Assembly (NCBI GenBank): GCA_018175075.1
Contig: GCA_018175075.1_4100.2
From: a phage
Reading direction: 5' to 3' (one strand)
Length of the DNA stretch: 64,000 nt
The position numbers and the translations under genes were made by a program. Shown piece by piece: positions 7,021 to 52,717 of the stretch (position 1 is its first letter; each line of letters opens with the position of its first letter). The notes below the pieces were generated by a model, which saw only the letters and a list, made by a program, of their open reading frames with translations, did no database searches and was not told where the DNA came from.

Positions 7021-7027
7021 ATTCTTA

Positions 7028-7051: not shown

Positions 7052-7064
7052 CGCAGGTACAAAG

Positions 7065-7367: not shown

Positions 7368-7374
7368 AACTAAA

Positions 7375-7953
7375 ATGAATGTATTAGAATTAAGTACTAA
7401 GCTGATTAGTATGCGTAATGAGTGGTACGATTGGTTTTATAATGGTACTGATATGGATTTTTCAAAATATCCATTTATGGAATCAGGATGTGATGCAAGA
7501 TACCGCTGGTTGAGCAAAGATTGTTCTGGTTTACATATTCTAGTTGACGATAGTGGTCAGGGAATTATAAAAGATTTACTTCAAGTTGAACAACTCGTCC
7601 ATGATAATTGGTGTGATAACGATCCATACCTTGGAAATATGATTTATGTAAGTGAAGATGATTGCATATTCGTTATCCAGCGTCATGGTAATTCTATGTT
7701 TTATGTAGCAGACAGCAGTACTCCAGAAGGTGCAGCAGCCGATGGTCTTATGCCTAAGATTGATATATTGGAATTTGGATTACCTGAGCACTTCCAGATT
7801 AGTACTTTATACGATATTCCACCACTTGAGTTCTTTGAAGAATTTAAATTGTACTACAATGATCTTCAAAAATTGAGTACTGATCGACGCATTGAAATAA
7901 CTGTTAAGTACATGGACGGAACGAAATTAACTGATACGGGGATAGAATTTTGA
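7375..7953 (+). CDS. hypothetical protein
   Basis: ORF. Confidence 0.5.
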   Translation: MNVLELSTKLISMRNEWYDWFYNGTDMDFSKYPFMESGCDARYRWLSKDCSGLHILVDDSGQGIIKDLLQVEQLVHDNWCDNDPYLGNMIYVSEDDCIFVIQRHGNSMFYVADSSTPEGAAADGLMPKIDILEFGLPEHFQISTLYDIPPLEFFEEFKLYYNDLQKLSTDRRIEITVKYMDGTKLTDTGIEF

Positions 7954-8639: not shown

Positions 8640-8640
8640 T

Positions 8641-8904
8641 ATGAATATTAAAGATAGATTACAATTACTATACACTATTGAACAGGCTGCTTTTGAACTT
8701 GTTAATAAAATCTCCGAAGAACTTCCCAAAGGAACTATAGTTCGTGTAATTGAGAGGGATTATGAATCTGGAGAAATTGAAGAACTAGTACTAACCGTGA
8801 ATAAAGTAACATACTATGAATCTGAGTTGGCTATCCAATGTATATCGGAAGATGGTAAAATATACTATTATGACACTGGTGTAGATATAGAGGTAATAAA
8901 ATGA
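8641..8904 (+). CDS. hypothetical protein
   Basis: ORF; start moved to ATG 8641 (GGTGGA upstream) to avoid overlap. Confidence 0.45.
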   Translation: MNIKDRLQLLYTIEQAAFELVNKISEELPKGTIVRVIERDYESGEIEELVLTVNKVTYYESELAIQCISEDGKIYYYDTGVDIEVIK

Positions 8905-12072: not shown

Positions 12073-12112
12073 TAAAATAAATAGTGCATATATGACAAAA
12101 AGGACTTTCTAT

Positions 12113-12799
12113 ATGCACTATTATATTATATATAAAATAACCAATTTAATTAATAATAAAATTTATATTGGTGCTCATATGACTGATGACATAAATGATG
12201 AATATATGGGTTCAGGTGTTCTGATAAAGAAATCCATTAAGAAATATGGAATTGAAAAATTCAATAAAGAAATACTTTATATTTTTGATAATAAAGAAGA
12301 AATGTATAACAAAGAAAGAGAAATTGTTAATGAACAATTTATACAAAGAAGCGACACATATAACATCAAACGTGGTGGAGAAGGTGGCTACGGCGTAATT
12401 GATAAAGAAAATTGGAAAAAACAAATATCAACGGCACAAAAGAAGCGATATTCTTCAGGTGTTGTGGCTTGGAATAAAGGTAAATCTGTATCAGAAGAAA
12501 CACGTATTCAAATGAGTCAGAGGATGAAAGGTCGTTTCCCTGGAGATAAAAATCCTATGCATGGTAAACCCTGTACATATAAAATGACAGATGAAGAAAA
12601 AACATCATGGTCCAACAATATAAAGAAATCAAACACTGGTAAAAAGAGAACTGATGTTCAAAAACAAAAATATTCTTCGGTCGCGTCAAAACGAATTTGG
12701 TTAGTTCATAAAAGTGGTAAAGTTACTAATACACAAAATGAAAATGACCCACGTTTGAATGATCCAGATTGGCAACGTGGTCAAAAGTGGAGAGAATGA
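12113..12799 (+). CDS. GIY-YIG homing endonuclease (Seg-like)
   Basis: YIIYKITN...KIYIGAH GIY-YIG motif; C-terminal NUMOD3-like repeats; start at ATG 12113 with AAAGGA upstream. Confidence 0.8.
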   Translation: MHYYIIYKITNLINNKIYIGAHMTDDINDEYMGSGVLIKKSIKKYGIEKFNKEILYIFDNKEEMYNKEREIVNEQFIQRSDTYNIKRGGEGGYGVIDKENWKKQISTAQKKRYSSGVVAWNKGKSVSEETRIQMSQRMKGRFPGDKNPMHGKPCTYKMTDEEKTSWSNNIKKSNTGKKRTDVQKQKYSSVASKRIWLVHKSGKVTNTQNENDPRLNDPDWQRGQKWRE

Positions 12800-12823
12800 A
12801 TATTTTTATGGATTATAATTTTT

Positions 12824-12850
12824 GAGGGATCATATGTTGGTCCCTTTTTC
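12824..12850 (+). terminator. intrinsic terminator
   Basis: Hairpin GGGATCA...TGGTCCC plus T-run. Confidence 0.6.
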
Positions 12851-12867
12851 TTTTAAGGAATATTATA

Positions 12868-13044
12868 ATGAATGTAAAAACACAGATGTTATTACAAAAA
12901 GAATACTTAGAAAATATAGAAATGTTCTATAGATTGTCTTTATACGAAAAAAAACATAAAAAATATAGCTTTTCTAAACATCTAAACACAAGTACTGATG
13001 ATTATCTATTTTCATCAATGTTTTATGTGAGAGGTTTATTATAA
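12868..13044 (+). CDS. small hypothetical protein (58 aa)
   Basis: ORF below track threshold; AAGGAA RBS 8 nt upstream; stop overlaps next ATG (TAATG). Confidence 0.4.
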   Translation: MNVKTQMLLQKEYLENIEMFYRLSLYEKKHKKYSFSKHLNTSTDDYLFSSMFYVRGLL

Positions 13045-13304
13045 TGGATAAATTTCACACAGATATAACACAGATAGGTAATCTTATCAATAGTCTAATT
13101 ACTGATTTAGAAGAAAAGTACTTAGGTCGAAATGTATACGTAGAAATGTATGAAACATATGGTGTTATTGATATGATTTATTACAGTGCATTGAAGTGTG
13201 AAATACGTTTAACAGTATGTTTGTTTGAAAAAAATACATTCAACAGAAGTACTGCAATTCGCCAAGTTGGAGTTGATGATATAGAATTATACGAGGAACA
13301 ATGA
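13044..13304 (+). CDS. small paralog-family protein (dispersed member)
   Basis: EEKYLGRNVYVEMY motif. Confidence 0.5.
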   Translation: MDKFHTDITQIGNLINSLITDLEEKYLGRNVYVEMYETYGVIDMIYYSALKCEIRLTVCLFEKNTFNRSTAIRQVGVDDIELYEEQ

Positions 13305-31712: not shown

Positions 31713-31815
31713 TTCATTTGAAGACATATTGTGGAGTTCTTAATAAATACTTTTATAAGAATAATAATACTTTTTATTAAATTAAAAAGAACTCCATGTG
31801 TTATTTCAGTTTTTC

Positions 31816-39731: not shown

Positions 39732-39756
39732 AAGCACCCGTTGGGTGCTTTTTTAT
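39732..39756 (+). terminator. intrinsic terminator
   Basis: Hairpin AGCACCC...GGGTGCT plus T-run. Confidence 0.65.
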
Positions 39757-39762
39757 TATGTA

Positions 39763-39770
39763 TATAAATA
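39763..39770 (+). promoter_or_regulatory. T4-type late promoter motif TATAAATA
   Basis: Exact TATAAATA about 35 nt upstream of the 39805 ATG. Confidence 0.45.
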
Positions 39771-39804
39771 CATTAACTAATATCTAATTTATAAGGGATA
39801 TATA

Positions 39805-42501
39805 ATGTCAAAGAAAATATATGGTGGCTTAGATGTCACACATAATGTGACAGTTAATGGTAAAAGAACAATTCAAGGAATAAATGAACAAGTTTTTGAT
39901 TCCAACGGTAACTTGGAATTAGATACTTATTCCAGAGATGAAGTACTAGATATAGTAAGTATGATGCCAATCTCCCATTATGGTTCACAAAACTATCTAC
40001 CTGCGGGTGTTTCTGGGGATTTCAATGGTGCATCAGAAAACCAGTCACAACGTAGAAATAAAATTTTATTAGAAAACGATGGTACACTAGTACTTTTACG
40101 TAGTGGGACAAACGGTAGTGTTGAGGGATTATTTTATTCATATTTGGCTAACGCATTATCAGTTGATGACATGAGCCGTACAATTAACACTAGTCGTCAA
40201 TACAAGCCTGGGTTTTTTGGTTCAAATAGAGTTGCGATTGGTTTATACAATACTGATCCAAATATTTTACTCGGTAGATATATTGATACTTCTAACAGTA
40301 CTAATGGTTTGTTCATATCAATTACCAATGGTACATTAGATGATAAATTGCATACTGGTTTTTTCGTTAACCAAGCAGATATATCACCTGAAGGTGGTAT
40401 TGAATATGCTATGATGGCAGAAGATGGTTCTATATATGTTTTTAACGTACTTAATGAAAATAACCAACTACAATTAGTTGTTGTTAAAGTTGTTTATAAT
40501 ATAAGCAATGGTACTTATACTGCAACTCGAATTACTGGATGGACTACTAAAACATTTTATAACACGACATATTCTGCACAAAATAATATGGTTATTACTA
40601 ATCAGGTAACATCAACAAATATTGCTGATAAACCTTATGTGTATGTTCCACAAAATCTACGCGGTATTGGGATTTACATGACATCAATTGATTTATATGT
40701 TGCACAGCAGCCAGGAACGCAGAATTTCCGCTTTAGAATGAACGGGGATGCTTGGTTTACAATGGCAACATATAATACACGTCCACAGCATAGTTACAGT
40801 TTTGTGTTCAATATGAGTACTAAACAATGTACATTAGATGCGGGTAACGATATTGGTTCATATCAAGCACCATTAGTTATAACTAATACTGGTTCGGCAT
40901 TAGTTCCTACTGGTAACGTTTTAAATAACGATCCATTGTATAACCATGCAAATGCAAGAAACATTTATAGTTCATATTTTTATTTAAATTCAGGTGAAGC
41001 ATTTTGTACTGCATGTCCAAACTTAGCAGAACCATTACTTATGCAAAAAGCTAAGTTTCCTATTCAAATAGTTTATAGTATGCTGAATGTCCGTGCTGTA
41101 CTTTCTACTGACTTCAAAGGTGGTATAGTTCGCCCGTCTTTTGGTTCAGCGGTTGGTTCATTTATTAATGGTGTAGAATTACTACCAGATAACAGTACTA
41201 AACAATATTCACGTGCATCAGGTAGTGGTGGATTTAGACCATCATATGCAGTTCATAAAAGTACTCCTAATTTTACATTTAAATCATTATCTTTAGGAAC
41301 AATACAAGGTTATGAACCTACAGTTGAACGTGCTAATGTTGATGATAATGCAAATAATAGAATTTTTATTAGTAGTATTTCTGGGTCAACTGTCACAACC
41401 AATGGTGGTATTTTTATGGTTGGGAAACGTTATTCACAATCATTATCCTATGATAAAAACTTAAATGGCACAGGAATTATAAGCGTTACACAATCAGTAC
41501 TGGACAATTTTAGAAATACTGAATATGCCAAAGTTCTAAGTGATTGGAATTTATCAGCACAAGCATACCGTGATATGACACTATTTGTTCCACAACAAAC
41601 AGACATTCCAGCTTTTGTTATGTTGAGTACAATTACTAATGATTATAGAAACTATATTAGAATTGCTGAAGTTAATGTCAATACTAGAGTTGGTAATATT
41701 ACATCTATTACATTTAAGCGTTTAGTACTTGAGAATACGTATGGTGATAACTTTACACCAACTGGGAATGGTTCGATTGCATCTTCTTCTGTTGGTTTGA
41801 CCATATATGATGGTGGTTCATTCTACTTCATTGGTGGTTCTGACCCATTATCACATCCAACAATAGGTAATACTGCAACTCATCAATTTAGAGCATATGT
41901 AACTAAATCAACTGCACAATTTACAAGTTTTATAATTACTGGATCTCATGCCAGTTATGAACAAGGAAGTCAACCAGCAGCATTACCTGGTATTGGTTTT
42001 GGAATTTTTGAACCAATGGATTACTCAAATAAAATGACATTCAAAAAATATGGAACAACGATTGCAGACTATAATAACTGGACTGCACAAGGTAGCCCAA
42101 TTAACGTAGTATCCCAGGACGTTGCTCAAGGGTTTATTGTATATTTTACAGAGGAAACACCAGTTATTCTTTCAGGTAAGTCATTTTCACTACCAGTTTC
42201 AAATATTGATTTGAGAACTATTAAGTCTAATCCAGCAAATACAACATTTTATGTATATGTTAAATTGGAACAAGGATTGGCAAACTATTACATAACTACT
42301 GATGTTATTTCTGAAACAGGAACAACTGCATATAATATTTTTTGGATAGGTACAATTCAAACTAATGCAATTCAAATCGAAACAATTAATATACAAAAAC
42401 GTTCCCGTTTAGATATATTTGGTGCTTCACTTGAATCAGCAGGTTCATCGTTCCCAGTTAGCTACGGTCTACCATCACAAACAGGAACCATAAACTGGTA
42501 A
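39805..42501 (+). CDS. large fibre-like structural protein (paralog A)
   Basis: 898 aa, Ser/Thr/Asn/Gly-rich; shares N-terminal (LRSGTNGS) and C-terminal (GSSFPVS.G.PS.TGT..W) blocks with 43117..45846. Confidence 0.5.
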   Translation: MSKKIYGGLDVTHNVTVNGKRTIQGINEQVFDSNGNLELDTYSRDEVLDIVSMMPISHYGSQNYLPAGVSGDFNGASENQSQRRNKILLENDGTLVLLRSGTNGSVEGLFYSYLANALSVDDMSRTINTSRQYKPGFFGSNRVAIGLYNTDPNILLGRYIDTSNSTNGLFISITNGTLDDKLHTGFFVNQADISPEGGIEYAMMAEDGSIYVFNVLNENNQLQLVVVKVVYNISNGTYTATRITGWTTKTFYNTTYSAQNNMVITNQVTSTNIADKPYVYVPQNLRGIGIYMTSIDLYVAQQPGTQNFRFRMNGDAWFTMATYNTRPQHSYSFVFNMSTKQCTLDAGNDIGSYQAPLVITNTGSALVPTGNVLNNDPLYNHANARNIYSSYFYLNSGEAFCTACPNLAEPLLMQKAKFPIQIVYSMLNVRAVLSTDFKGGIVRPSFGSAVGSFINGVELLPDNSTKQYSRASGSGGFRPSYAVHKSTPNFTFKSLSLGTIQGYEPTVERANVDDNANNRIFISSISGSTVTTNGGIFMVGKRYSQSLSYDKNLNGTGIISVTQSVLDNFRNTEYAKVLSDWNLSAQAYRDMTLFVPQQTDIPAFVMLSTITNDYRNYIRIAEVNVNTRVGNITSITFKRLVLENTYGDNFTPTGNGSIASSSVGLTIYDGGSFYFIGGSDPLSHPTIGNTATHQFRAYVTKSTAQFTSFIITGSHASYEQGSQPAALPGIGFGIFEPMDYSNKMTFKKYGTTIADYNNWTAQGSPINVVSQDVAQGFIVYFTEETPVILSGKSFSLPVSNIDLRTIKSNPANTTFYVYVKLEQGLANYYITTDVISETGTTAYNIFWIGTIQTNAIQIETINIQKRSRLDIFGASLESAGSSFPVSYGLPSQTGTINW

Positions 42502-42512
42502 AGGATTACATA

Positions 42513-43100
42513 ATGGCATATAAAATAAGAGCAGACCTTAAGGCAATGCAACAAGTAACAGTTCAGGGTAAAAGTACTGGTCTTGGTGTATTAGGTAATA
42601 ATATGACTTATTACCCAACAAATTCAAATGGGGAATGTACATTCCCCTCTATTACCAAAGATGAAGTTAACTTTATTGTCAATGGATTACCACTTACACA
42701 ATACGGAGAATTGTATGATGACGCTAGTCTAAATATTACTTCATCAGGCTATAGTCTTACATTTAACAGACAGATACCATCATTTATTGGTGGTTATCTT
42801 TATAAATTTCCAGCAGTTTCTATTTTTGCTTCAACTGTTTCATCTGGAACACAAACACAATACGTATATGCAACGTTAGTTCTCGGTGAACCAATTTATA
42901 AAATATCACCAACACAAATACAAGAATCTGAAATTATAATGTTTATTGGAACACTGACCGTTGGTACAAGTGGTATTACAAATATAAACATTAATAAAGT
43001 ATCCAGATTTAGTACATATAGACCTAGTGTTACACAAAAAGGTTCTTCATTCCCAGTCAGTACTGGAAAACCATCAGAAACTGGTACAATTGGTTGGTAA
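42513..43100 (+). CDS. short fibre-like paralog (195 aa)
   Basis: C-terminus ...YRPSVTQKGSSFPVSTGKPSETGTIGW matches neighbours. Confidence 0.5.
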   Translation: MAYKIRADLKAMQQVTVQGKSTGLGVLGNNMTYYPTNSNGECTFPSITKDEVNFIVNGLPLTQYGELYDDASLNITSSGYSLTFNRQIPSFIGGYLYKFPAVSIFASTVSSGTQTQYVYATLVLGEPIYKISPTQIQESEIIMFIGTLTVGTSGITNININKVSRFSTYRPSVTQKGSSFPVSTGKPSETGTIGW

Positions 43101-43116
43101 ATTAAGGAAAAGAAAG

Positions 43117-45846
43117 ATGTCATCAAAACGAATTATAGGAAGTGCCGAGATCCTTGGGAACTTGGCAATTGGACAAAGGTACGCTATGCGTACTTTTAAT
43201 GGAACCTCACCGAATGCCAATACTGGAATTGTTCAATATCCAATATATAAGCGTTCAGAAGTTCAAAGTATTTTAGATATGTTGCCTATATCACGTGTAG
43301 GAGAAATGGATTACTTACCATTAAACGTAAGTGGATCGTATGAAGGTGCTACACCTATGTCAAGTGACCAAGTAGTTCAGCCAACAATTATTGAAGATGA
43401 TGGAACCGCCGTTGTTCTGCGTAGCGGAACCAATGGTAGTACTAAAGGTTTTTATTATTCATTTATACGAGATCTCCGAAATATAACTATGATTTCACAA
43501 GAAAGTGTTATTTCAACCAATTCAATGTATAAACCTTCAATTATGAGTAGTACTGAAAATATTAAGTATTTTATTGGCTCTAATGGTTATGAGATGCTTG
43601 GATGTTTAAGTACTGAAGATAATTATATTTTTACTATAACCAATGGCACATTTAACGAAATATCACATATTCATGCTAAAGTTCCAAGTACTTCTTTTGG
43701 TAATGATATGCCAATATATACACATATTGTTGGGACAAAGGTTTATATTTGGTGTAAAGATAAAAGTGTTTCTAATTTAGGATTAGCACTTTCAATTTAT
43801 ACAGTAGAGCTAAGTGATGTGAAAGCAAGCTCAATGGCATCATTAACAAAAGTTACTGGGTTATCAGGTCAAACTGTTCGAAACACAAGTTATTCTGCAT
43901 CTAATAACATAAGAGTGTTCGATAAATTATATAGTGTTGGTACTAGCTCGGATTCATTATTCGAAGTTACATCACCAGTATCACGTGTAGAATTTTCAGA
44001 CTATACAGACTTTAACATTCAAGCCAACGTTAGTCCTGATTTATCAAAAATACGTGTAACTTTATATCCAACACATCGAATGGTTACACCTTTGTATATT
44101 TCAACAGTTTATGGTACTGGAATAAGTTTTGTTTATAATATAAACTCAAAATCTATGTCACTAGATGGTAGTGCTCGTGCACCTGCAACTGTTTCATATA
44201 ATAATGGATTTCAAGTTTCTAACCCATTTGAAATTAATATGGTCAACTTCACAGGGACAACTGCTGCTGGTGTATTAGGAAACGCAGGTGGTTTATGTCA
44301 AACTAAAGATGGTTTGGTATTTGCATCTAAATTTAGATGGAGTTCAACTGAATTTTATGGTCTACAACGATATAAGGTTAGTGGTACACCGTTTGATTCA
44401 TGGGTTGCCAGTACTAGAACCGCAAGTAACGTTATAAATGCAAACGTTTTACCAGTTTTTGGTAGTGCTGTTGGTGCAAACCTTTTAGGTGTACGTTTCA
44501 TCGATAATAGAAAAATATTATTAGCATGTTCTGGTACGTATGATGATGTAACATATAATTATAATAATACTGTTTTTTCTGAAATAGGTTCACAACCAAC
44601 ATATCAATATAACTCAGTTCAAAATAATACTACATTAAATGGTTTTGCACCACAATCTAATCGTAAACAAATAGGCGATGATTTTACATACACTGCTATG
44701 ATTTCTCTTGTTGATACCGATGGTAGTGTTAGATGCTATGGAACATCATTCATTGAAGGTGTATATAAAACAAGTGGTGGATTATTAAACCCAGATACTT
44801 TAGAATTTGATGAAACATATACAATAGAACCAACGGTATTAGAATCATTAAAACAAGATATTTTTGCTAATATAGGAAACTCTGGCATTGTTGGCACACT
44901 ATCTGGACAAATTGTATTATATTATGTACCTGATAATACTTTTTCTAAATCCATCGCAGTAGTTTCAGCATATAATCTTAACAATAACCAAGGTTATGCA
45001 ATCTATGCCGAAGTTGATGTTGTATTATCTGGAACTAACATAACTTCAGCTACATTGGTGAGTACTAGATATGAGACACTTAGTTCTGTTACAGGAATTA
45101 TTACTGAAGCATATATGAAACGTTGTACTGGTCTAACAGTTGCAAAATATTCAGGATTTGGTTACATTGGTGTTGATGCTGTTCATCAATTTTCACAACC
45201 AGGTAATGCACAATTTAAGATGATGATAGCTAAAACAGTAGATGGTGTCATAACATCAAATCGTTTTTTATCATCTAGTTACATCCAACTTGGTGCAGCA
45301 TATCAACATGGTGTTATTCCTGGTGTTGGTTTTGGATATTACAATTTTCAAGATTCTGACTATCAAACCAAATCTGTATTCAGCGTTTTTGGTACAACAT
45401 CTGCTGAAATGGATGGTTTAATTAGCGGAAATGGTAGCGTTAAAGAAAAGATTGTGGTAGTATCACAAGACGTTGCACAAGGATTCTCAGTGTACTTTAC
45501 ACGTGAAGTTCCGGTGTTTTTAGGTGGAATTTTCGACAGACTACCTATACAAAGTGTTGATTTAAGTACTGTAAAAAGTAACCCAGCTAATACTACGTTC
45601 TATTTGTATATACAAATGAACAGGAATACTAAGAAAGCGTCATATGTTATTAGTACTGAAACAATTGATGAATCTTTAACTAGCACTTACATTGGTAAGA
45701 TAGTTACTGGAACTTCAGGAATAACTTCAATTGATACAGAAAAAGTAACTCGTTTTTTGACATATCGTCCAAGTACAACGAAACGTGGTTCAGCGATACC
45801 TGCCAGTACTGGTGTACCATCAGGTCCAGGTACACGTTGGAAATAA
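43117..45846 (+). CDS. large fibre-like structural protein (paralog B)
   Basis: Start at ATG 43117 after AAGGAAAAG; shared N- and C-terminal blocks with 39805..42501. Confidence 0.5.
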   Translation: MSSKRIIGSAEILGNLAIGQRYAMRTFNGTSPNANTGIVQYPIYKRSEVQSILDMLPISRVGEMDYLPLNVSGSYEGATPMSSDQVVQPTIIEDDGTAVVLRSGTNGSTKGFYYSFIRDLRNITMISQESVISTNSMYKPSIMSSTENIKYFIGSNGYEMLGCLSTEDNYIFTITNGTFNEISHIHAKVPSTSFGNDMPIYTHIVGTKVYIWCKDKSVSNLGLALSIYTVELSDVKASSMASLTKVTGLSGQTVRNTSYSASNNIRVFDKLYSVGTSSDSLFEVTSPVSRVEFSDYTDFNIQANVSPDLSKIRVTLYPTHRMVTPLYISTVYGTGISFVYNINSKSMSLDGSARAPATVSYNNGFQVSNPFEINMVNFTGTTAAGVLGNAGGLCQTKDGLVFASKFRWSSTEFYGLQRYKVSGTPFDSWVASTRTASNVINANVLPVFGSAVGANLLGVRFIDNRKILLACSGTYDDVTYNYNNTVFSEIGSQPTYQYNSVQNNTTLNGFAPQSNRKQIGDDFTYTAMISLVDTDGSVRCYGTSFIEGVYKTSGGLLNPDTLEFDETYTIEPTVLESLKQDIFANIGNSGIVGTLSGQIVLYYVPDNTFSKSIAVVSAYNLNNNQGYAIYAEVDVVLSGTNITSATLVSTRYETLSSVTGIITEAYMKRCTGLTVAKYSGFGYIGVDAVHQFSQPGNAQFKMMIAKTVDGVITSNRFLSSSYIQLGAAYQHGVIPGVGFGYYNFQDSDYQTKSVFSVFGTTSAEMDGLISGNGSVKEKIVVVSQDVAQGFSVYFTREVPVFLGGIFDRLPIQSVDLSTVKSNPANTTFYLYIQMNRNTKKASYVISTETIDESLTSTYIGKIVTGTSGITSIDTEKVTRFLTYRPSTTKRGSAIPASTGVPSGPGTRWK

Positions 45847-45849
45847 ATT

Positions 45850-45880
45850 TAAAGCTCGTCTATTGACGGGCTTTTCTTTT
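45850..45880 (+). terminator. intrinsic terminator
   Basis: Imperfect hairpin AGCTCGTC...GACGGGCT plus T-run. Confidence 0.5.
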
Positions 45881-45891
45881 ATGTGTATAAT
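45863..45891 (+). promoter_or_regulatory. sigma70-like promoter (TTGACG -17- TATAAT) overlapping the terminator hairpin
   Basis: TTGACG at 45863-45868; TATAAT at 45886-45891. Confidence 0.5.
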
Positions 45892-45913
45892 TGAATAAAA
45901 ATAGGAGGAAATT

Positions 45914-46480
45914 ATGGTCAAATCTTTATTACCGCCACCAAAACGTCACAAAATCAAAGAAATGAAAGAACAACGTACATTAAAGATGTACATCAATTTA
46001 GTTAAGTTACTGTGTAAAAGTCCATCGCTCAAAGCAGAGTTTAAAACTGATGATGACCGCAAAGCACTAATTGAGATGAAGTATATGCTCAGTAAAATGT
46101 CCTTTTACAAATTTGTAAAAGAATACGCATCTGACCCATTTAGTCCTCGTTGGAGAGCCAAACCAAGAGAGTATTTTTACGGTGGTTCATATACGGATCT
46201 CATTCAAGACACAGTGATGGGAGTTGAATTTGAAATCGATTATGATCCGAATGGTGTGGAAAGCTGGCCGATTGAGAAACGTTTACCAAGTGAAGAAGAA
46301 ATTTATGTTTATGCAAGAAAACTTTCAAATTTCAGTTCAAGAATTACTCTAGGCAATTTAGATTCATTTATTATTTTCTATACACGTGTTGGTGTAGATA
46401 AAATGGTAACTAAACTCAATGAACTTTCATTACAACAAAAACAGATTAATGCATACAAAGACATTACTGATTTATACTAA
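45914..46480 (+). CDS. hypothetical protein (triplet paralog 1)
   Basis: RBS AGGAGG; KTDDDRKALIEMKYMLSK motif shared with next two genes. Confidence 0.5.
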   Translation: MVKSLLPPPKRHKIKEMKEQRTLKMYINLVKLLCKSPSLKAEFKTDDDRKALIEMKYMLSKMSFYKFVKEYASDPFSPRWRAKPREYFYGGSYTDLIQDTVMGVEFEIDYDPNGVESWPIEKRLPSEEEIYVYARKLSNFSSRITLGNLDSFIIFYTRVGVDKMVTKLNELSLQQKQINAYKDITDLY

Positions 46481-46492
46481 TGAGGAATGGAT

Positions 46493-47008
46493 ATGTTTTT
46501 TGGATCAGTTGGAAAACAAAACAGTACTTTAATTTGGCATGAAATTATCTTTAAAATTATATCTAAAAGCTACTCACTAAAGGATATTATCACCACAGAT
46601 AATGATAGACGTATCCTGTTAGATGCAAAATATAAATTGAGCAAACACCCTTTACTTTCTTTAATCATTGATTACGTTAATGATTATGAATCTAGTCGTT
46701 GGAAGTGGGAAGACGGCGGTTTATTTCGTGGAAAAACATTCTACGGTGCGGAACGATATGTTTTCAGTGATACATCAAATGGCGTTAAGTTTGCTATTAG
46801 AAACTTTAACTCCAAAGAAAATGATTATCTTGAAAGTGGAGTGAAAGTATATATCGATAATAATAGCAATGTACTAACATATGACGAATCACTAATTATG
46901 TTACAAATAATGCGTGGAGTTGAAGGTGTAAGAAACAACCTTACTAAATTGAAAATCCAGCAAAATGATATACATAATAGACAGAAAATTAAGGGTTTAT
47001 ATAAATGA
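46493..47008 (+). CDS. hypothetical protein (triplet paralog 2)
   Basis: TTDNDRRILLDAKYKLSK motif; start at ATG 46493. Confidence 0.5.
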   Translation: MFFGSVGKQNSTLIWHEIIFKIISKSYSLKDIITTDNDRRILLDAKYKLSKHPLLSLIIDYVNDYESSRWKWEDGGLFRGKTFYGAERYVFSDTSNGVKFAIRNFNSKENDYLESGVKVYIDNNSNVLTYDESLIMLQIMRGVEGVRNNLTKLKIQQNDIHNRQKIKGLYK

Positions 47009-47514
47009 TTTCATTTTTCAAAAAGAAACAAAAAGTTGATGAAACCGGATTAGAATCGTTTCTGTGGACTCTTATCATCAAAAAAAGCCCATTGATGAAA
47101 GAATATGCTATCAATGATGCTAATAGAAAAACTATCATTGAATACAAATACGAATTATCAAAATGTGATCCAATCGTTTATCACTTTGCGAAGTACTGTT
47201 CAAACAATTTATCGGATATCACAATCGACCACGAGTCAGTCCCGATGAGTTTTCCTTATGGTGATTGGGTAGATACTTTTGATATTTTTGATGGGTCAAA
47301 TGGTTTCAGTTTCTTTTACTCGTCAAATAAAGCAAGTGTTCGTATTAAAACAGACATAGGTTGGACACAGCATAGCTCAAATAAAGAAGATTATAATTTA
47401 TTAGCTGACGTATACCGAAGTGTGAAGAATTCAAAGGATATTGATGAAAGAATTAAAAAGCAAAATCGTATATCTTTATCACTTGAAACATACAAGTCAA
47501 AGTATGGTGGTTAA
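47005..47514 (+). CDS. hypothetical protein (triplet paralog 3)
   Basis: INDANRKTIIEYKYELSK motif. Confidence 0.5.
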   Translation: MISFFKKKQKVDETGLESFLWTLIIKKSPLMKEYAINDANRKTIIEYKYELSKCDPIVYHFAKYCSNNLSDITIDHESVPMSFPYGDWVDTFDIFDGSNGFSFFYSSNKASVRIKTDIGWTQHSSNKEDYNLLADVYRSVKNSKDIDERIKKQNRISLSLETYKSKYGG

Positions 47515-47516
47515 CT

Positions 47517-47918
47517 ATGACTACAGTTGATGATATCTATAGCACTATACGCAATATGAGTACAGATAGAAAAGTATTTGGCGATAAAGAAAAATCTAAG
47601 TGTTATGGTATTGATTCTTTTGATATAATTTCTTATGAGTACAATACAAGTGGAAATAGTTCACTGAATATCGTCTGTCCTCGTGACCCAGAAAATAATT
47701 TTATGTATGTTGAAATTAATAATGATGGAATGTTTTTTACAAAAGTTTTCAAAGGTGGAATTAATTACGAACCTATTGAATGTATGAATGAAGAAACTTT
47801 CTTTCAAGAAGATACAATTATCAATTTAGGTTTTAGTTTTGATGATTATAAAACATTAGAACATGACTTTAATCGTTATTATAATGGTTTCTTAAAGGAG
47901 TTAACAATTTATCTATGA
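47517..47918 (+). CDS. hypothetical protein
   Basis: ORF. Confidence 0.5.
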   Translation: MTTVDDIYSTIRNMSTDRKVFGDKEKSKCYGIDSFDIISYEYNTSGNSSLNIVCPRDPENNFMYVEINNDGMFFTKVFKGGINYEPIECMNEETFFQEDTIINLGFSFDDYKTLEHDFNRYYNGFLKELTIYL

Positions 47919-49147
47919 ATAACCAATATATTGAACAAACAATAGTGAAACACTTGGCTGGGTCACAAGCCTACGGAACCAGTACACCGGAAAGTGATAC
48001 TGATTATCGTGGTATTTTTCTTGCTAATAAAGAATTTATTCTTACACCCTTCTATAAGGTCAAAGAGGTAGCTGACAAAAGCGAAGAAGATACTAAATTC
48101 TATGAGTTGAATCAGTATTTAAAATTATACACTGAAGCTAACCCTAATATTCTTGAATCACTTTGGGTTGAACCTGAACACATTGTGGAAAGTACTGAAA
48201 TTTATGACTATCTTCGTTCATTTAACCAAAAACTTCTTAGTTCCAAGATTGCATTTTCATACACTGGATATGCATATAATCAGATTAAGCGTATGACAAA
48301 TCATCACGGTTGGATGGATAAAGAGCGTATTGCTGAAAAACGATTAAATGAGATTTTAGAAGAACACCCTGTCGATGAGGTTCTTGCGTGGATGTATGAT
48401 TCATTCCCACAGTATCTTGTTGAACGTTTAGATACATCCAACTTACATCCATTTAATGCTAAAAAGATTGATTTTGAAAAATATATGCGTGATACATCAT
48501 TGCAGTTAGTTTCGAAAAATCCATTAAAGCAATATCATTTCGTAAGATTAGTGCATAACTACACTACTGAAAAAATTCTTGATCGTGATTTCAATTTATT
48601 GAATTTTAATAATGGTTATGAACTAATTCATTACGGAGAAAACATTTTTGCGATTGTTAAGAATCCTAATGAAAGCACTATTAACCATGATGGTTCATTG
48701 CGTTATTTTTCAAAAGAACGTAGTACTGAAGAGTTGAAAACCAAACCAGAACTAATTGTAAAATTTAACGAAAAAGAATATCAGGAAAATAGTGAGAATA
48801 GGAAAAGTTATCATAAATGGAAAGAAAATCGTAATGCCAAACGTGCTATTTTAGAATCACAACACGGATTCGATTGCAAACATGCTATGCACACAATTAG
48901 ACTTTTGAATAGTGCAGAAGAAGCATTACAGAGTGGAATTATTCAAGTTAAACGACCTGATGCACAAATGTTGATGGATATTCGTAATGGTAAGTGGAAG
49001 TATGAAGAAGTATTAGAATATTTCGATGATAAAGTACAATACATTCGTGATGTTCTATATAAGAAATCAGTACTTCCCAAAAAACCAAACATTAAATTAG
49101 CATCAAAAATTATCATTGATATCAGAGAAATGCAATGGTATAAGTAA
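47915..49147 (+). CDS. Pol-beta-superfamily nucleotidyltransferase-like protein
   Basis: N-terminal GSQAYGTSTPESDTDYRGIF fits the hG[GS]...D.D minimal nucleotidyltransferase motif. Confidence 0.5.
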   Translation: MNNQYIEQTIVKHLAGSQAYGTSTPESDTDYRGIFLANKEFILTPFYKVKEVADKSEEDTKFYELNQYLKLYTEANPNILESLWVEPEHIVESTEIYDYLRSFNQKLLSSKIAFSYTGYAYNQIKRMTNHHGWMDKERIAEKRLNEILEEHPVDEVLAWMYDSFPQYLVERLDTSNLHPFNAKKIDFEKYMRDTSLQLVSKNPLKQYHFVRLVHNYTTEKILDRDFNLLNFNNGYELIHYGENIFAIVKNPNESTINHDGSLRYFSKERSTEELKTKPELIVKFNEKEYQENSENRKSYHKWKENRNAKRAILESQHGFDCKHAMHTIRLLNSAEEALQSGIIQVKRPDAQMLMDIRNGKWKYEEVLEYFDDKVQYIRDVLYKKSVLPKKPNIKLASKIIIDIREMQWYK

Positions 49148-49152
49148 CATAC

Positions 49153-49353
49153 ATGAGTATAATGGTACTAAAAATGCCATTATACTCGATAAATACTCAA
49201 TATAAATTAACGCAAGGATTAAGTATGGCACAACAAATTTTCACAGATATCCACACTACCGGAGTTATTAAATTTCAAAATAATTTTTCAGGTGCAACTG
49301 GCGTAGACATTAAAAATGATGGTTTTAACATTGTCAGTACTCGGATCTATTGA
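49153..49353 (+). CDS. small hypothetical protein
   Basis: ORF; overlaps next ORF in another frame. Confidence 0.3.
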   Translation: MSIMVLKMPLYSINTQYKLTQGLSMAQQIFTDIHTTGVIKFQNNFSGATGVDIKNDGFNIVSTRIY

Positions 49354-49852
49354 CGGTGAAGATAGTTCTCTTAGTGATTCGGTAATTGCATCATTTGGAA
49401 CAAATAAAAACAGTTCTTTTATTATTTCTGGCTGGACTGGAATGACTTCTTCCGAAAATAATGTAAAAATAAAAGCTAAAGCTACTAATGAGAATCATGA
49501 AACAGAATGGGTAACATTGTATGATAGTGCTAGTAACAAGTTATATAATGTATTGAGTTCTAATAATATTTTAATTAATCCCCTATCAGGTAATACAGTT
49601 TTTAATATTAATTTATCTGATAGAAATACCACTATTGCTATTGGTTCTGCTCCTACTGAAGTTTATTCAATTACTATCCTATTAACTCAGCAAACAGGGT
49701 CTAACCTCGTTAATTGGGGTTCAAATGTTAAATGGTCATATAATAGACCAGTTGTTCTTTCTTATGAAATTGGTGAAAAAGATATTATTTCATTAGAAAC
49801 ATATGATAAAGGAGTTACATGGTACGGTGCATTAATTAGAGCAGGAGTATGA
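49316..49852 (+). CDS. hypothetical protein
   Basis: ORF; start uncertain. Confidence 0.4.
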   Translation: MMVLTLSVLGSIDGEDSSLSDSVIASFGTNKNSSFIISGWTGMTSSENNVKIKAKATNENHETEWVTLYDSASNKLYNVLSSNNILINPLSGNTVFNINLSDRNTTIAIGSAPTEVYSITILLTQQTGSNLVNWGSNVKWSYNRPVVLSYEIGEKDIISLETYDKGVTWYGALIRAGV

Positions 49853-49853
49853 T

Positions 49854-52643
49854 ATGTTAAACAATAATATTGATAATATTGTACAACTTCTTTATGGGCA
49901 TCACAAATTTATTGAAAGAAATACTGGTGATACAATAGACCCAACAGTACAGCATTATGTGGTGAACAATCAGGGTGTTTTGGCGAACAACCGCCATTTT
50001 ATTAACTATTCTGCAATGGAAGGTCAACCAAACGGTGACGGGACAACAGAAGGTCAAAGTCTATTAATTTTAGGATACATTTATGCATATCTGGCTACAA
50101 ATGATCCATTGTTTTTAGATAAGGCAAAGTGGTATTGGGACGCATATCATCAGTACTTTTATGCTGGACGTGAATTACCAGATCCACCTACACCGCTACA
50201 ATGTAACTGGATAGTTAATGCAAAAGAACCTATATTGGCTAACTGGCCTTTAGCTGATGATGGATGGCCTACACATGGTGGTTTCAAGGGTGTAGAATTT
50301 ACATTTACAAATGGTCAATGCAAAATACCACATGGTGCACCATATTATGGTCAGTTCTTGGATAAAGTGACATTTGCATTCAAAGGTGCTTTAGCATGGA
50401 ACCAAATAAATGCGTCAGTAAAAGCTTTATTACCAGATGGTAGTGTTGATTGGGATACACCAGGTGAACAATATGATGTTGACTGGATTATTGATTTCAT
50501 GGGTAGAAAAATCGACTGGGATGGTAATATTTTAGCAGAAGGTTTTGACGAATCTGAAAAAGGAACTGTTCAATTAAAGAATACAACAATTAATGGTGTA
50601 TATAAATTAAATTTTGCTAATCGTCAACCAGTAGAATATGGTGGTGTAATAATTCAACGAAATGAAATGCAACACAACCGCCCACTTCATGTTCCAATTG
50701 ATTTAGAATTTGCTGATAACGCATCAGATGCAGAATTATGGTTTAGTGATGCTTCGTATTTGTTATATAAAATAACTAAAGAAAGAAAACATTATTTGGG
50801 TTGGAAATGTTCACTACTCACATGCTATGCTTATGGTGATATCGACTCCAGAGATAAATTTTTCAGACAAAGTACAATTGTAACCACACCATTCACTGAT
50901 GGTATTTCCTATGAATATTTTTATCCAAGTGATGCTATTGCTAAGTTTGGTAGAAATTCGTTAGGATACATTACTATCAGACAAGACCAAAGTGCACAGA
51001 GTACTATGGAGCAACAAGCTATTTGGTTCAGGGTAAATGCTGATTCAAAATTGCTAGTTGACTATGGTGGCGTGTGCGATGATGGTAAACCGTTATCATT
51101 TAAACCAGTACTGGAATTGTCAAAAACAAAAAATGACCATGATGTTGTTCGTTATCGTTGCGGCTTACCAGAAAGTAAAGACCAAAATATCACACATTCA
51201 TTAACACCGTTAAGTGCATTTGTTAGAGAAAAGAAAGCAGATGGTTCCCCTTATATAATTGCTGATAGTAGAATTGTTGTTCCTTATGGTGCAGCTACGT
51301 CCGAAATGTTATATAGTACTGATATATTAGTTACACGCCGCGATACCATTAATCAGTTAGTTTGTGGTGAAGATGATGGTGCTGTTATTGGATTTTGGCT
51401 ATTAGCAACAAATAAGTCTGAAGTTAAATCTTTTACCTATCGTTCATATGAAGATGATTACAATATAAGAATTGTAGATGATAATGGTTGGAGATGGTGG
51501 TGGATGATTCCTGCAACACACGGGGAATGGACTACAATCACACTAAGTTCCGATACATTACGTTTATCTGGGTATCAGCCAAATCATCCAAGTTCTGACC
51601 CAAGACCAGATGCACCAGTTTATAGTGAACTAGAAGATATTACTATTTTACCTGATACAACCCCAGTAGATGGTGTTGCTGCAATAATTGATTGGTATTG
51701 TATTAATGACATTCCAGAATTATACACGGATGCTGACGGTGATGACTATACTATGACATTTTCAATAACAATTGCAGGTGAATCACCATATACTGCACAG
51801 TTAGGGGATTGTGTAATCAAGGATTATTTGTTAAACTCATTGCATTACACACCAGGAACAATACCATTTTCTAACATCACTGACCCGTATGCGAACCAGT
51901 ATTCAGGATGGCGTGGTTTACCGTATCCAGGTTATCAATATCCTGTGATATATTGTTTTAAAGACCAGCCGGTAGATAACACACGCTTAGGAAACATGTT
52001 AAGCTTTATGAAAGATTCCCAAACATGGTTTACTCAACAATTCGGTACTGTTGGTCCGTGTGCACAAGCATATGTTTGGAACCGCTGGGATAACTTAAAA
52101 TATGGTGAACCAGATACATTTACTATGCTACATTGGGGTGATCAAGCATGGAGTGGGTATGAACCACGTGCGTTCTTTGGGGCTGCCAGAGCATGGCAAG
52201 AACTCGCAGAGAGAGGAATTGAACCACCAGCAGATCTTGTTGAATTTTGTGAGAATTGGATTCACTTTTTAATTCAATTTCAAAAAGATAATGATGGTCG
52301 TTCACCAACAATCTTCAATAAAGATGGCACAGTTGAAGGTCCAGATTGGGACTTTACAGGTCATATGTGTGGGTTGTGGTTAGCTGGGGCTTGTGCTGCT
52401 GGATTGGCTGGATGTAAAATAGAAGGTCTAACAACACTCGCTGATAACTTAGTTCTCGAACTTCAAAAGAATTATGTTATTGTAAATCCAGGTTCACCAA
52501 TGAATGGTTCATGGAGTCCAGCAGTTAGAGAAGGTACTGATAATGGTATGTTTTTTGGTTTCTGGGCAGGTGAGATTATGCGTGGATTGGGATTATACTC
52601 AATGTACCGCTTAAACACACCAAATCGTTTCCGTGATTTATAA
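49854..52643 (+). CDS. large hypothetical protein (929 aa)
   Basis: Long Trp/Tyr-rich ORF directly after the fibre-like genes; no motif I can assign. Confidence 0.5.
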   Translation: MLNNNIDNIVQLLYGHHKFIERNTGDTIDPTVQHYVVNNQGVLANNRHFINYSAMEGQPNGDGTTEGQSLLILGYIYAYLATNDPLFLDKAKWYWDAYHQYFYAGRELPDPPTPLQCNWIVNAKEPILANWPLADDGWPTHGGFKGVEFTFTNGQCKIPHGAPYYGQFLDKVTFAFKGALAWNQINASVKALLPDGSVDWDTPGEQYDVDWIIDFMGRKIDWDGNILAEGFDESEKGTVQLKNTTINGVYKLNFANRQPVEYGGVIIQRNEMQHNRPLHVPIDLEFADNASDAELWFSDASYLLYKITKERKHYLGWKCSLLTCYAYGDIDSRDKFFRQSTIVTTPFTDGISYEYFYPSDAIAKFGRNSLGYITIRQDQSAQSTMEQQAIWFRVNADSKLLVDYGGVCDDGKPLSFKPVLELSKTKNDHDVVRYRCGLPESKDQNITHSLTPLSAFVREKKADGSPYIIADSRIVVPYGAATSEMLYSTDILVTRRDTINQLVCGEDDGAVIGFWLLATNKSEVKSFTYRSYEDDYNIRIVDDNGWRWWWMIPATHGEWTTITLSSDTLRLSGYQPNHPSSDPRPDAPVYSELEDITILPDTTPVDGVAAIIDWYCINDIPELYTDADGDDYTMTFSITIAGESPYTAQLGDCVIKDYLLNSLHYTPGTIPFSNITDPYANQYSGWRGLPYPGYQYPVIYCFKDQPVDNTRLGNMLSFMKDSQTWFTQQFGTVGPCAQAYVWNRWDNLKYGEPDTFTMLHWGDQAWSGYEPRAFFGAARAWQELAERGIEPPADLVEFCENWIHFLIQFQKDNDGRSPTIFNKDGTVEGPDWDFTGHMCGLWLAGACAAGLAGCKIEGLTTLADNLVLELQKNYVIVNPGSPMNGSWSPAVREGTDNGMFFGFWAGEIMRGLGLYSMYRLNTPNRFRDL

Positions 52644-52644
52644 C

Positions 52645-52673
52645 TTGACATAGAAAAAGTAATTATGTATAAT
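52645..52673 (+). promoter_or_regulatory. consensus sigma70 promoter (TTGACA -17- TATAAT)
   Basis: TTGACA at 52645-52650; TATAAT at 52668-52673. Confidence 0.65.
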
Positions 52674-52674
52674 C

Positions 52675-52705
52675 AGAGAACTTCATATGGAGTTCTCTTT
52701 TTTTA
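52675..52705 (+). terminator. strong intrinsic terminator
   Basis: 10-bp stem AGAGAACTTC / GGAGTTCTCT, 4-nt loop, seven T's. Confidence 0.7.
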
Positions 52706-52717
52706 TAAGGTGATAAA

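Follow-up and report, generated by a model that had tools for sequence, protein, structure and literature searches.

The DNA analysed here (the window, 64,000 nucleotides) comes from an Asteriusvirus jumbo coliphage that is 99% identical to BF17 and phAPEC6. The phage belongs to the known giant E. coli phages of the PBECO4/121Q group, which are jumbo myophages. Asteriusviruses and other Rak2-like jumbo phages have been proposed for phage therapy, and their adsorption apparatus is mostly without assigned proteins. The span considered in this report, positions 39763 to 52643, is largely ordinary and is now better described; four of its proteins, formerly “hypothetical” or loosely “tail fiber,” are given fold-level identities.

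Gene content and transcription units

The span opens with two large paralogs that flank a much smaller one, continues through an interposed operon, and ends in an accessory cassette (Table 1). The open reading frames named in a preliminary description of the span are all present: those of 898, 195, and about 910 aa (909 by our count), the paralogous triplet (33% and 26% identity), the nucleotidyltransferase (Pfam RlaP, E 5e-16), and the 929-aa frame. The nucleotidyltransferase was the sole match in a Pfam run on ten proteins, and a tRNA scan of the 64-kb window found no tRNA genes. The triplet proteins match PHROG 18641 and PHROG 7868, both of no known function.

Table 1. Features of the locus and their coordinates in the window
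Feature	Position	Strand	Remarks
Intrinsic terminator hairpin	39732..39750	+	Terminator scan; ends nrdD-nrdG unit
Late-promoter-like motif T-ATAAATAC, with TATAAATA at 39763-39770	39763..39771	+	Conserved core ATAAATAC
898-aa virion protein (121Q gp499, phAPEC6 gp323c)	39805..42501	+	Beta-propeller-rich globular (predicted), PHROG 3573
195-aa “mini” paralog	42513..43100	+	N-terminal ~60 aa plus C-terminal ~120 aa; ~720-aa core missing
909-aa paralog (121Q gp501)	43117..45846	+	Ortholog of virion protein CBB_149
Intrinsic terminator	45851..45874	+	Terminator scan; closes propeller-paralog operon; annotated terminator in G17
Sigma-70-type promoter TTGACG-17-TATAAT	45863..45891	+	11/12 consensus matches; serves interposed operon
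Three tandem paralogs, 188, 173, and 169 aa (121Q gp502-504)	45914..47514	+	33% and 26% identity
133-aa protein and 410-aa RlaP-type nucleotidyltransferase	47517..49147	+	Pfam PF10127, E 5e-16; PHROG 388
3.56-kb accessory cassette	49161..52717	+	Indel among Asteriusviruses
Second late-promoter-like motif ATAAATAC	49189..49196	+	36 nt ahead of ATG 49225
42-aa ORF (phAPEC6 gp315c)	49225..49353	+	N-terminal part of split adaptor gene
178-aa ORF (121Q gp508 “tail fiber”)	49316..49852	+	C-terminal adaptor part; PHROG 32568 “tail fiber protein”
929-aa virion protein (121Q gp509, phAPEC6 gp314c)	49854..52643	+	Predicted (alpha/alpha)6 six-hairpin glycosidase-like core, CBM-like beta-sandwich insertions
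Perfect sigma-70-type promoter TTGACA-17-TATAAT (52645-52673), then terminator hairpin (52675-52698)	52645..52698	+	Cassette right end
Tryptic peptide spanning predicted +1 fusion junction			IYDGEDSSLSDSVIASFGTNK

The preliminary description had read the span as a single block driven by one late promoter. The promoter itself stands: TATAAATA at 39763 is an exact T4-type late motif, 34 nt ahead of the ATG at 39805. It lies just past the terminator hairpin (AAGCACCC...GGGTGCTTTTTT), which is kept in 121Q, Ecwhy_1, A4, fENko-Kae01, and CBB. It cannot drive the whole span, because the terminator at 45851-45874, the sigma-70-like promoter at 45863-45891, and a separate late motif at 49189 intervene; the span consists of three transcription units rather than one block.

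The + strand of the 64 kb holds only this one copy of TATAAATA, and both strands together hold 2 against 13.7 expected. ATAAATA, published as the late consensus for two related phages, CBB and GAP32 (PMC5259590), is about 9-fold depleted in the window, with all four + strand copies in non-coding DNA. The ATAAATAC core occurs at the same spacing ahead of the orthologous operon in six phages, where the flanks vary and the preceding T is not conserved. The ATAAATAC copy at 49189 is conserved in three phages, including 121Q and A4; like the motif at 39763, it is non-coding and precedes its ATG by 34-36 nt. Because the core is conserved amid varying flanks, ATAAATA is depleted, and the consensus matches that of CBB and GAP32, late, structural expression of the paralog operon is plausible on sequence grounds. 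RpoD-like promoters mark early genes in CBB (PMC5259590), and the genes of the interposed operon are probably early.

The propeller paralogs and their mini form

The 898-aa and 909-aa proteins align over their full length (28% identity, E 1e-63), with identity falling from 44% at residues 51-100 to 12-26% between residues 150 and 750 and reaching 48-52% between residues 751 and 850. The centres have therefore diverged, as the preliminary description held. It further supposed that the central domains had been swapped, and here it does not stand: the centres align as collinear diverged homologs, and paralog-type relatives have the entire fold in common (TM 0.82). The C-terminal motif GS[SA][FI]P[VA]S.G.PS..GT occurs in all three proteins (898, 195, and 909 aa), whereas DGT.V.LRSGTNGS, also described as common to the three, is confined to the two large ones and is missing from the 195-aa protein. 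An AAGGA Shine-Dalgarno sequence stands ahead of the 909-aa gene (ATG 43117), whose product is homologous to the 898-aa protein from residue 2-3 onward. This frame is intact in phAPEC6 yet unannotated in its record; such annotation gaps limited the published virion proteome.

Both large proteins match the profile of PHROG 3573 (E 1.8e-274 and 4.7e-267). This propeller family spans 132 phage records, is conserved over very different jumbo phages and hosts, and includes relatives annotated “minor tail protein.” In Goslar its neighbours are genes for tail fibres, and in EL it adjoins a gene for baseplate assembly. PDB sequence searches with the 898-aa protein and with the family profile matched no chain, and a Pfam scan of relatives with an internal or extended C-terminal domain gave no domains.

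The predicted monomer of the 898-aa protein is compact, globular, and all-beta (pTM 0.80), built of beta-sheet domains, and is without a beta-helix, coiled coil, or triple-helix stalk. Its best fold matches are beta-propellers, the top two being fucose lectins; an elongated fold like that of the trimeric fibres and tailspikes is not what the monomer model gives. Many jumbo phages have full-length structural relatives in BFVD (TM 0.6-0.87) whose annotation is virion structural protein. Confidence in the monomer model is low at residues 1-60 and 873-898, and these termini may form a stalk in an oligomer.

Virion presence is documented by published mass spectrometry: gp323c, the counterpart of the 898-aa protein, was detected in phAPEC6 virions at a low coverage of 5.6%, and gp314c, the counterpart of the 929-aa protein, at a low coverage of 13% (PMC7247149). 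CBB_148 and CBB_149 are annotated as structural, likely on the basis of mass spectrometry in the CBB study. Of the idea of fibre paralogs with swapped centres, virion association and plausible late structural expression survive, and the swapped domains and, in the monomer model, the fibre fold do not. In the fENko-Kae01 record the three orthologs lack the “identified with LC-MS/MS” note that a nearby gene has, and a search of the fENko-Kae01 proteomics supplement for the orthologs found nothing. The BASEL completion paper holds no Asteriusvirus data, and the fEgEco12 paper nothing specific on these genes. Assigning the propeller family to the whiskers that make the tails of phAPEC6 and CBB “hairy” is unsupported. 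By the expectation of the CBB paper, a GAP32 without whiskers should lack the whisker genes too (PMC5259590), and GAP32 has the family; the proposal also fails on size, with a globular protein of ~100 kDa set against 119-nm hairs.

Two stretches of the 195-aa protein, ~60 aa at the N-terminus and ~120 aa at the C-terminus, align to both large paralogs. Each of the three genes has a single counterpart in CBB, in the order CBB_147, CBB_148, and CBB_149 (46% identity, 45% over the termini, and 35%, respectively), the mini gene being the positional ortholog of the 916-aa CBB_148. The triplication is therefore older than the split between Asteriusvirus and Mimasvirus, and the mini gene is an internal-deletion derivative. 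It remains 195-196 aa long in A4 and fENko-Kae01, with a rough dN/dS of 0.2-0.4. Mini forms also recur elsewhere: they make up 22 of the 150 top cluster representatives, include Goslar gp28, and in some cases have tail-fibre-like N-termini. The propeller family, in which mini forms recur, is a virion component found across the jumbo phages.

The optional cassette and the 929-aa protein

The cassette is present in PBECO4, 121Q, G17, and phAPEC6, and also in A4, as judged from a locus that takes in the adaptor gene and only the beginning of the 929-aa homolog. It is missing in Ecwhy_1 and fEgEco12, in which 10 nt separate the stop of the nucleotidyltransferase gene from the start of the ACP gene, and it is missing at the syntenic site in CBB and fENko-Kae01. 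Both the sigma-70-type promoter and the terminator hairpin at its right end lie inside the indel. The cassette is optional and self-contained, with its own late motif, and its glycosidase-like protein is thus optional within the genus. PBECO4, 121Q, and phAPEC6 (with the cassette) and Ecwhy_1 and fEgEco12 (without it) therefore amount to a natural experiment on the part that this protein plays in host range or biofilm penetration.

Two overlapping frames at the start of the cassette form a split adaptor gene. The 42-aa ORF aligns to the N-terminus of the uninterrupted 209-aa A4_503, and its product, gp315c, was detected in phAPEC6 virions with 69% coverage (PMC7247149). In a five-sequence comparison of this peptide with the propeller family, a shared N-terminal anchor did not reach significance (2.6 bits, E 0.047). 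The 42-aa and 178-aa frames would be joined by a +1 shift at TAT TGA C (49348-49354); reading TAT and then GAC gives a 208-aa product whose alignment with A4_503 needs only one gap, of one residue and well downstream of the junction. Five genomes have the identical site and, as in prfB, an in-frame UGA is followed by C and the shift restores the ancestral frame. Re-pairing from UAU to AUU is poor, and the sequence ahead of the putative shift site offers no more than a weak GGA.

The adaptor and the 929-aa protein are linked beyond this genus. The C-terminal domain of the 178-aa frame is homologous to the gene directly upstream of a 929-aa homolog in an Enterobacter prophage (E 8e-16), and homology at the same position occurs in the phi92-like phage JohannJBalmer (E 5e-20), so that the linkage is kept in three unrelated phage types. 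One adaptor relative is fused to a tail-tube-like domain.

The predicted structure of the 929-aa protein contains an (alpha/alpha)6 barrel. The protein is Trp-rich, as the preliminary description stated (3.3% against 1.2% in the ORFs of the window); the Tyr richness claimed alongside it is not borne out, Tyr content being average. The family covers 531 phage records. The match to PHROG 2871 has E = 0, and a phi92-like homolog is 57% identical over 99% of the length. In the phi92-like phage this homolog lies inside the baseplate gene cluster and is annotated [quoted passage not shown] the annotation of the family in phi92-like phages generally being lateral tail fibre with glycosidase domains. 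Other relatives are fused to a P2 gpI baseplate-wedge domain or to tail-sheath domains. Between Pseudomonas, Enterobacter, and E. coli hosts the family is ~50% identical. Five carboxylates are invariant (D62, D292, E294, D746, and E907) and E66 is nearly so. Pfam glycoside hydrolase families gave no match to the 929-aa protein. A weak GH76 repeat match (E 8e-4) was the only sequence match to a defined hydrolase family, and PDB sequence searches returned insignificant or repeat-level matches only.

Probable roles of the two modules and comparison with known systems

We infer that the span holds two independent late-transcribed virion-accessory modules with an unrelated, probably early operon between them. 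In the first module, the likeliest role of the conserved N-terminal ~110 aa and of the C-terminal domain of ~130 aa, with its flexible GSSFPVS.G.PS.TGT..W tail at the end, is that of assembly interfaces to the periphery of the tail or baseplate; that of the diverged propeller cores is the binding of glycans on the host surface. The middle paralog would have lost its core and would persist as a conserved 195-aa subunit with the two interface regions only, which probably co-assembles with the large paralogs or takes their sites. In the second, optional module, the 929-aa protein is probably displayed on the tail, where it would bind or cleave a conserved envelope or matrix polysaccharide during adsorption. 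Graded as one explanation, with modules, assembly interfaces, glycan binding, mini subunit, and optional glycosidase-like cassette taken together, this reading is given a probability of roughly 0.6.

Three other accounts of the propeller paralogs have been weighed. The 898-, 195-, and 909-aa proteins would, in the account closest to the preliminary description, be trimeric receptor-binding fibres or spikes with swapped central receptor-binding domains and a broad or switchable host range. Late expression, virion association, conserved termini with diverged centres, the “minor tail protein” annotations, the tail-fibre-like N-termini of some mini relatives, and a low-confidence N-terminal 60 aa and C-terminal tail, as for segments that fold only in an oligomer, are all in keeping with it; the stalkless globular model and the collinear centres, which indicate divergence rather than domain swapping, make it very improbable. 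That the propellers are capsule- or O-antigen-degrading enzymes (sialidase-, GH43-, or GH130-like glycosidases or phosphorylases) instead of lectin-like binders is improbable as well: identity to the sialidase-, GH43-, and GH130-like matches is only 5-11%, a search of the 898-aa protein for Asp-boxes or a sialidase motif found none, the invariant residues of the family are mostly Gly, Pro, and aromatic with no conserved acidic cluster in the core, and the two best fold matches are lectins. A purely architectural role in the tail, collar, or baseplate, with no part in host recognition, would agree with the retention of the family over very different jumbo phages and hosts, with a dN/dS of 0.25-0.4 (no diversifying selection), and with the elongated decoration proteins on the collar and distal tail that cryo-EM of phAPEC6 shows and that have no assigned gene. 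This role is unlikely, however, as the cores diverge much faster than the termini in orthologs and paralogs alike and all three paralogs have long been kept, a pattern that ligand diversification fits better than scaffolding.

For the 929-aa protein, the alternative is a non-catalytic scaffold, such as a fibre-carrying arm of the kind proposed for phi92-like fibre I, with an inactive fold derived from a glycosidase. A receptor-binding protein would not usually keep ~50% identity between hosts that differ in their surface glycans, and this figure could reflect a structural role; the fusions to baseplate and sheath domains, the missing Pfam glycoside hydrolase match, and a phi92 fibre I arm and fibre II without an assigned protein point the same way. 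Against this, many Trp, Tyr, Asp, and Glu residues are invariant and CBM-like domains are present, as is typical of carbohydrate-active proteins, and close relatives without the protein are viable isolates, so that it is not an essential scaffold in the Asteriusvirus genus. A scaffold is possible, though the less probable choice. A bolder extension of the two-module reading is unlikely to hold in all its parts. The cassette may be a plug-in tail module that moves between phages of unrelated types (jumbo myophages, myophages like phi92 and rV5, and prophages of siphophages), and may deliver a six-hairpin glycosidase against a glycan common to Proteobacteria (e.g., cellulose, PNAG, or another matrix or envelope polymer), which, if true, would explain the ~50% identity between hosts. 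In the PBECO4/121Q lineage the adaptor may be made by programmed +1 ribosomal frameshifting at UAU-UGA-C. The mini paralog, for its part, may be a propeller-less blank that fixes the valency of a tail-borne, hetero-oligomeric propeller complex.

Several known systems bear comparison with the locus. The late motifs resemble T4 late promoters, which have this element at -10 and none at -35 and are recognized by the sigma factor gp55 together with gp33 and a sliding clamp, in the exact copy at 39763, its strong avoidance elsewhere, and its position ~35 nt before late-gene starts; they differ in that the core conserved in relatives is ATAAATAC, without the first T. A gp55-like sigma factor is predicted in CBB, in which no gp33 or gp45 homologs were found (PMC5259590), and phAPEC6 encodes a sigma factor. 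CBB_147/148/149 and GAP32_143-145 of the Rak2-like phages belong to the same family (PHROG 3573) and occupy the same position directly after nrdG. CBB differs in its full-sized middle paralog (916 aa, against 195 aa in Asteriusviruses) and in having no 929-aa cassette at the syntenic site.

The peripheral baseplate fibre complex of phiKZ, gp131-gp135, in which gp131 has a C-terminal 7-bladed propeller (PMC13250141), is likewise a set of tandem paralogs with a very small member (gp132), terminal segments shared for assembly, and beta-propeller domains. Only the N-termini are shared there, whereas both termini are shared in the window paralogs. BLAST (tblastn) and the family HMM found no homology over gp122-178, and the family profile matches no PDB chain; phiKZ is therefore an analogy and not a member of the family.

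The 929-aa protein shares its predicted core fold with six-hairpin (alpha/alpha)6 hydrolases (GH8, GH76, GH105/GH88, and GH48) at only 8-12% identity, and differs from them in having no Pfam GH match and two large beta-rich insertions that break up the barrel. Its full-length homologs are the lateral tail fibres of phi92-like phages and Vequintavirinae (e.g., JohannJBalmer bas62_0025, PHROG 2871), at 57% identity and with a gene for the adaptor domain upstream. A 2026 cryo-EM study of phi92 assigns no position to the homolog; fibres of the PHROG 2871 type are part of a “Swiss army knife” of glycan-active tail proteins (PMC8594841). The phi92-like homologs lie in the tail and baseplate cluster, whereas the gene in the window is far from the baseplate genes. 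It belongs to an optional cassette that brings along a promoter and a terminator, and is accompanied by an adaptor that is short and split.

Gene content and transcription units

The span at 39763-52643 matches Escherichia phages BF17 and phAPEC6 along its entire length at 99% identity; for PBECO4, 121Q, G17, and further Asteriusvirus jumbo myophages (~350 kb), the identity is 96-99%. All of its genes and proteins are already in public genomes, mostly recorded as "hypothetical" in related phages, with the loose names "tail fiber" or "tail protein" given to the last two; the present analysis adds fold-level annotation, operon structure, a mini-paralog pattern, a cassette indel, and a split adaptor. 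Every gene lies on the + strand. The sequence observations of the preliminary description were all recovered: the late motif, ORFs of 898, 195, and 909 aa, a paralogous triplet, an RlaP-type nucleotidyltransferase, and a Trp-rich ORF of 929 aa. The span had also been described as one block driven by a late promoter. The late motif at 39763 stands, but the mapped terminators, a sigma-70-type promoter, and a second ATAAATAC divide the span into three transcription units, two of them late.

Transcription signals and genes of the span (window coordinates)
Feature	Position	Strand	Role or context
898-aa propeller paralog	39805-42501	+	
195-aa mini paralog	42513-43100	+	
909-aa propeller paralog	43117-45846	+	
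Terminator	45851-45874	+	End of first late unit
Sigma-70-type promoter TTGACG-17-TATAAT	overlaps terminator 45851-45874	+	Drives triplet, 133-aa gene, nucleotidyltransferase
Triplet, 133-aa gene, nucleotidyltransferase	45914-49147	+	
Second ATAAATAC	49189	+	5' of 42-aa, 178-aa, 929-aa genes; conserved in 121Q, A4
Split adaptor (42-aa and 178-aa ORFs)	49225-49852	+	
929-aa gene	49854-52643	+	
Terminator hairpin	52675-52698	+	Ends 929-aa gene

The motif TATAAATA at 39763 is the sole + strand copy within 64 kb (2 copies on both strands versus 13.7 expected); it lies 34 nt from the ATG at 39805 and is directly preceded by a terminator hairpin 3' of nrdG. In 121Q, Ecwhy_1, A4, fENko-Kae01, and CBB, ATAAATAC recurs unchanged and equally spaced in front of the 898-aa orthologs, and the flanking bases differ, the preceding T included; by this comparison, the conserved promoter core is ATAAATAC, rather than the full T4 octamer. 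ATAAATA occurs five times in the window versus 45.5 expected (~9-fold depletion), and all four + strand copies fall in the non-coding ~8.5%, counting as non-coding the copy at 49189, which is overlapped by a spurious ORF extension. Further non-coding + strand copies at 12077-12083 and 31743-31749 are candidate late promoters. The window motif agrees with ATAAATA, the late consensus of CBB and GAP32 (PMC5259590); in CBB, a gp55-like sigma factor is predicted and early genes are marked by RpoD-like promoters (PMC5259590). The triplet (45914-47514) comprises tandem paralogs of 188, 173, and 169 aa (33% and 26% identity) under a sigma-70-type promoter, and its family annotation consists solely of the unknown-function PHROGs 18641 and 7868.

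An accessory cassette with a split adaptor and a tail protein

A cassette of 3.56 kb (49161-52717), which has its own late motif, terminator, and outward sigma-70-type promoter, is absent from Ecwhy_1 and fEgEco12, two close relatives in which 10 nt separate the nucleotidyltransferase stop from the acyl-carrier-protein start, and from the corresponding site in CBB and fENko-Kae01; it is therefore accessory. It is present in PBECO4, 121Q, G17, and phAPEC6, and A4, over the extent of its locus compared, has the adaptor gene followed by the beginning of the 929-aa homolog. The TTGACA-17-TATAAT promoter at the cassette end points toward the downstream acyl carrier protein gene. This perfect sigma-70 promoter would fire into the terminator hairpin, which lies directly 3' of it (the two together at 52645-52698).

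The A4 adaptor (A4_503) is a single uninterrupted gene of 209 aa. In the window, PBECO4, G17, 121Q, and phAPEC6, the adaptor is split into ORFs of 42 and 178 aa that overlap in different frames, and all five share one junction sequence. When TAT-TGA-C (49348-49354) is read as TAT followed by GAC, the resulting 208-aa product is collinear with A4_503, with one single-residue gap far 3' of the junction. The usual frameshift stimulators are weak at this junction, and no Shine-Dalgarno sequence is evident for the 178-aa ORF. A prfB-like +1 frameshift, which would make this a candidate programmed site, and a protein made in two pieces would each fit the split.

The 929-aa protein had been left unassigned to any family; it belongs to a known and widespread family of tail proteins, functionally uncharacterised and with a predicted glycosidase-like fold. 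Members are present in 531 phage records (PVP-SE1-like, phi92-like, and rV5-like phages, SPN3US, Goslar, and Vibrio phages among them), and the family forms 292 clusters at 90% identity, many of them ~50% identical and from Enterobacter, E. coli, and Pseudomonas genomes. The structure model is confident (pLDDT 89.2, pTM 0.83) and has paired helices at its two ends and centrally, with two beta-rich insertions between. The family profile weakly matches the GH76 helix-hairpin repeat (E 8e-4), and a 62-residue segment matches four PDB chains, all six-hairpin enzymes and none significant; no Pfam glycoside hydrolase model matches the protein. Published mass spectrometry of phAPEC6 virions detected the protein (gp314c, 8 peptides) together with the 42-aa product (gp315c).

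The homolog in JohannJBalmer, a phi92-like phage, is annotated "lateral tail fiber protein with several glycosidase domains" and sits in a baseplate cluster, right after a small protein sharing its C-terminal domain with the 178-aa protein. An Enterobacter siphophage prophage has the adaptor domain, there joined to a tail-tube-like N-terminal domain, and then the enzyme, in the same order as the window, and further relatives are fused to a P2 gpI baseplate-wedge domain or to non-contractile tail-sheath domains. The 929-aa module is thus probably carried on tails by attachment parts that can be exchanged. By gene order in the phi92-like relative, the phi92 counterpart is expected among gp141, gp142, and gp144; these three are absent from the text of the 2026 phi92 cryo-EM study, which assigns no protein to the fibre I arm or to fibre II.

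Propeller paralogs and their mini form

The 898-aa and 909-aa proteins can be aligned along their whole length (28% identity, E 1e-63), with identities of 44% over residues 51-100, 12-26% over 150-750, and ~50% over 751-850, a profile that bears out the earlier picture of conserved ends and diverged centres. The 195-aa protein aligns solely with the family's first ~60 and last ~120 residues; it shares the C-terminal GSSFPVS.G.PS.TGT motif and accordingly lacks the DGT.V.LRSGTNGS block, although both had been attributed to all three paralogs. For the third paralog, PBECO4 and 121Q annotate a start at 43186, 23 codons downstream (886 aa), and G17 one equivalent to 43117 (909 aa); the latter is preferred because an AAGGA Shine-Dalgarno sequence accompanies the ATG at 43117 and, from residue 2-3 onward, the protein is homologous to the 898-aa paralog.

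The reading of these proteins as fibre or spike paralogs with swapped centres is partly borne out: the genes are indeed late ones and their products virion-associated, but the end-to-end alignment argues against swapping and the predicted structure against a fibre fold. The 898-aa model, built with a 42-sequence alignment, is compact and all-beta (pLDDT 86.9, pTM 0.80), with low confidence only at residues 1-60 and 873-898. In a comparison with predicted viral structures, proteins of many jumbo phages match the chain over its whole length (TM 0.6-0.87). Several, the CBB, Erwinia phage Joad, and SEGD1 proteins among them, are annotated as virion structural proteins; the matches in Serratia BF and PhiEaH1 are uncharacterized. 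Published mass spectrometry detected the 898-aa protein itself (gp323c) in phAPEC6 virions. The 195-, 909-, and 178-aa proteins were undetectable in that proteome, because the search covered predicted proteins and record MK817115 leaves their intact ORFs unannotated (phAPEC6 locus 5751-9084, 12554-13090).

At the same site after nrdG, CBB has three full-length paralogs that are one-to-one orthologs of the window's genes: CBB_147 of the 898-aa protein (46%), CBB_148, through its termini, of the 195-aa protein, and CBB_149 of the 909-aa protein (35%); CBB_148 and CBB_149 are annotated as structural. By tblastn, the family is found in 132 phage records, including the phiKZ-like EL and Goslar, and a family HMM confirms EL gp114 and gp115, whose genes adjoin a baseplate assembly gene, and Goslar gp26. 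In Goslar (locus 3872-7487), full-length gp26 (867 aa) and a mini gp28 (169 aa; C-terminal domain E 1.6e-9, family HMM) are flanked by two tail-fibre genes, one with a Peptidase_S74 domain. The big-plus-mini arrangement thus extends beyond Rak2-like phages, to the nucleus-forming phage Goslar.

In A4 and fENko-Kae01, the length and frame of the mini gene are preserved (41-56% identity), with a rough dN/dS of 0.2-0.4, similar to the large paralogs; such conservation marks it as a maintained gene, not debris. A search of the C-terminal domain against 1.8 billion cluster representatives gave 348 matches; among the best 150 of these, 108 are of 860-1250 aa, 22 are mini forms (130-260 aa), and the domain is almost always C-terminal. 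The conserved termini may serve as assembly interfaces and the propeller cores may bear glycan-binding surfaces that diversify; lacking a core, the mini form would take the same sites as the large paralogs. Sequence homology between the propeller family and phiKZ gp131-135 was looked for and not found; as an instructive analogue, these phiKZ proteins are likewise tandem paralogs, the tiny gp132 included, whose shared termini form a hetero-hexameric fibre base with a distal 7-bladed propeller (PMC13250141).
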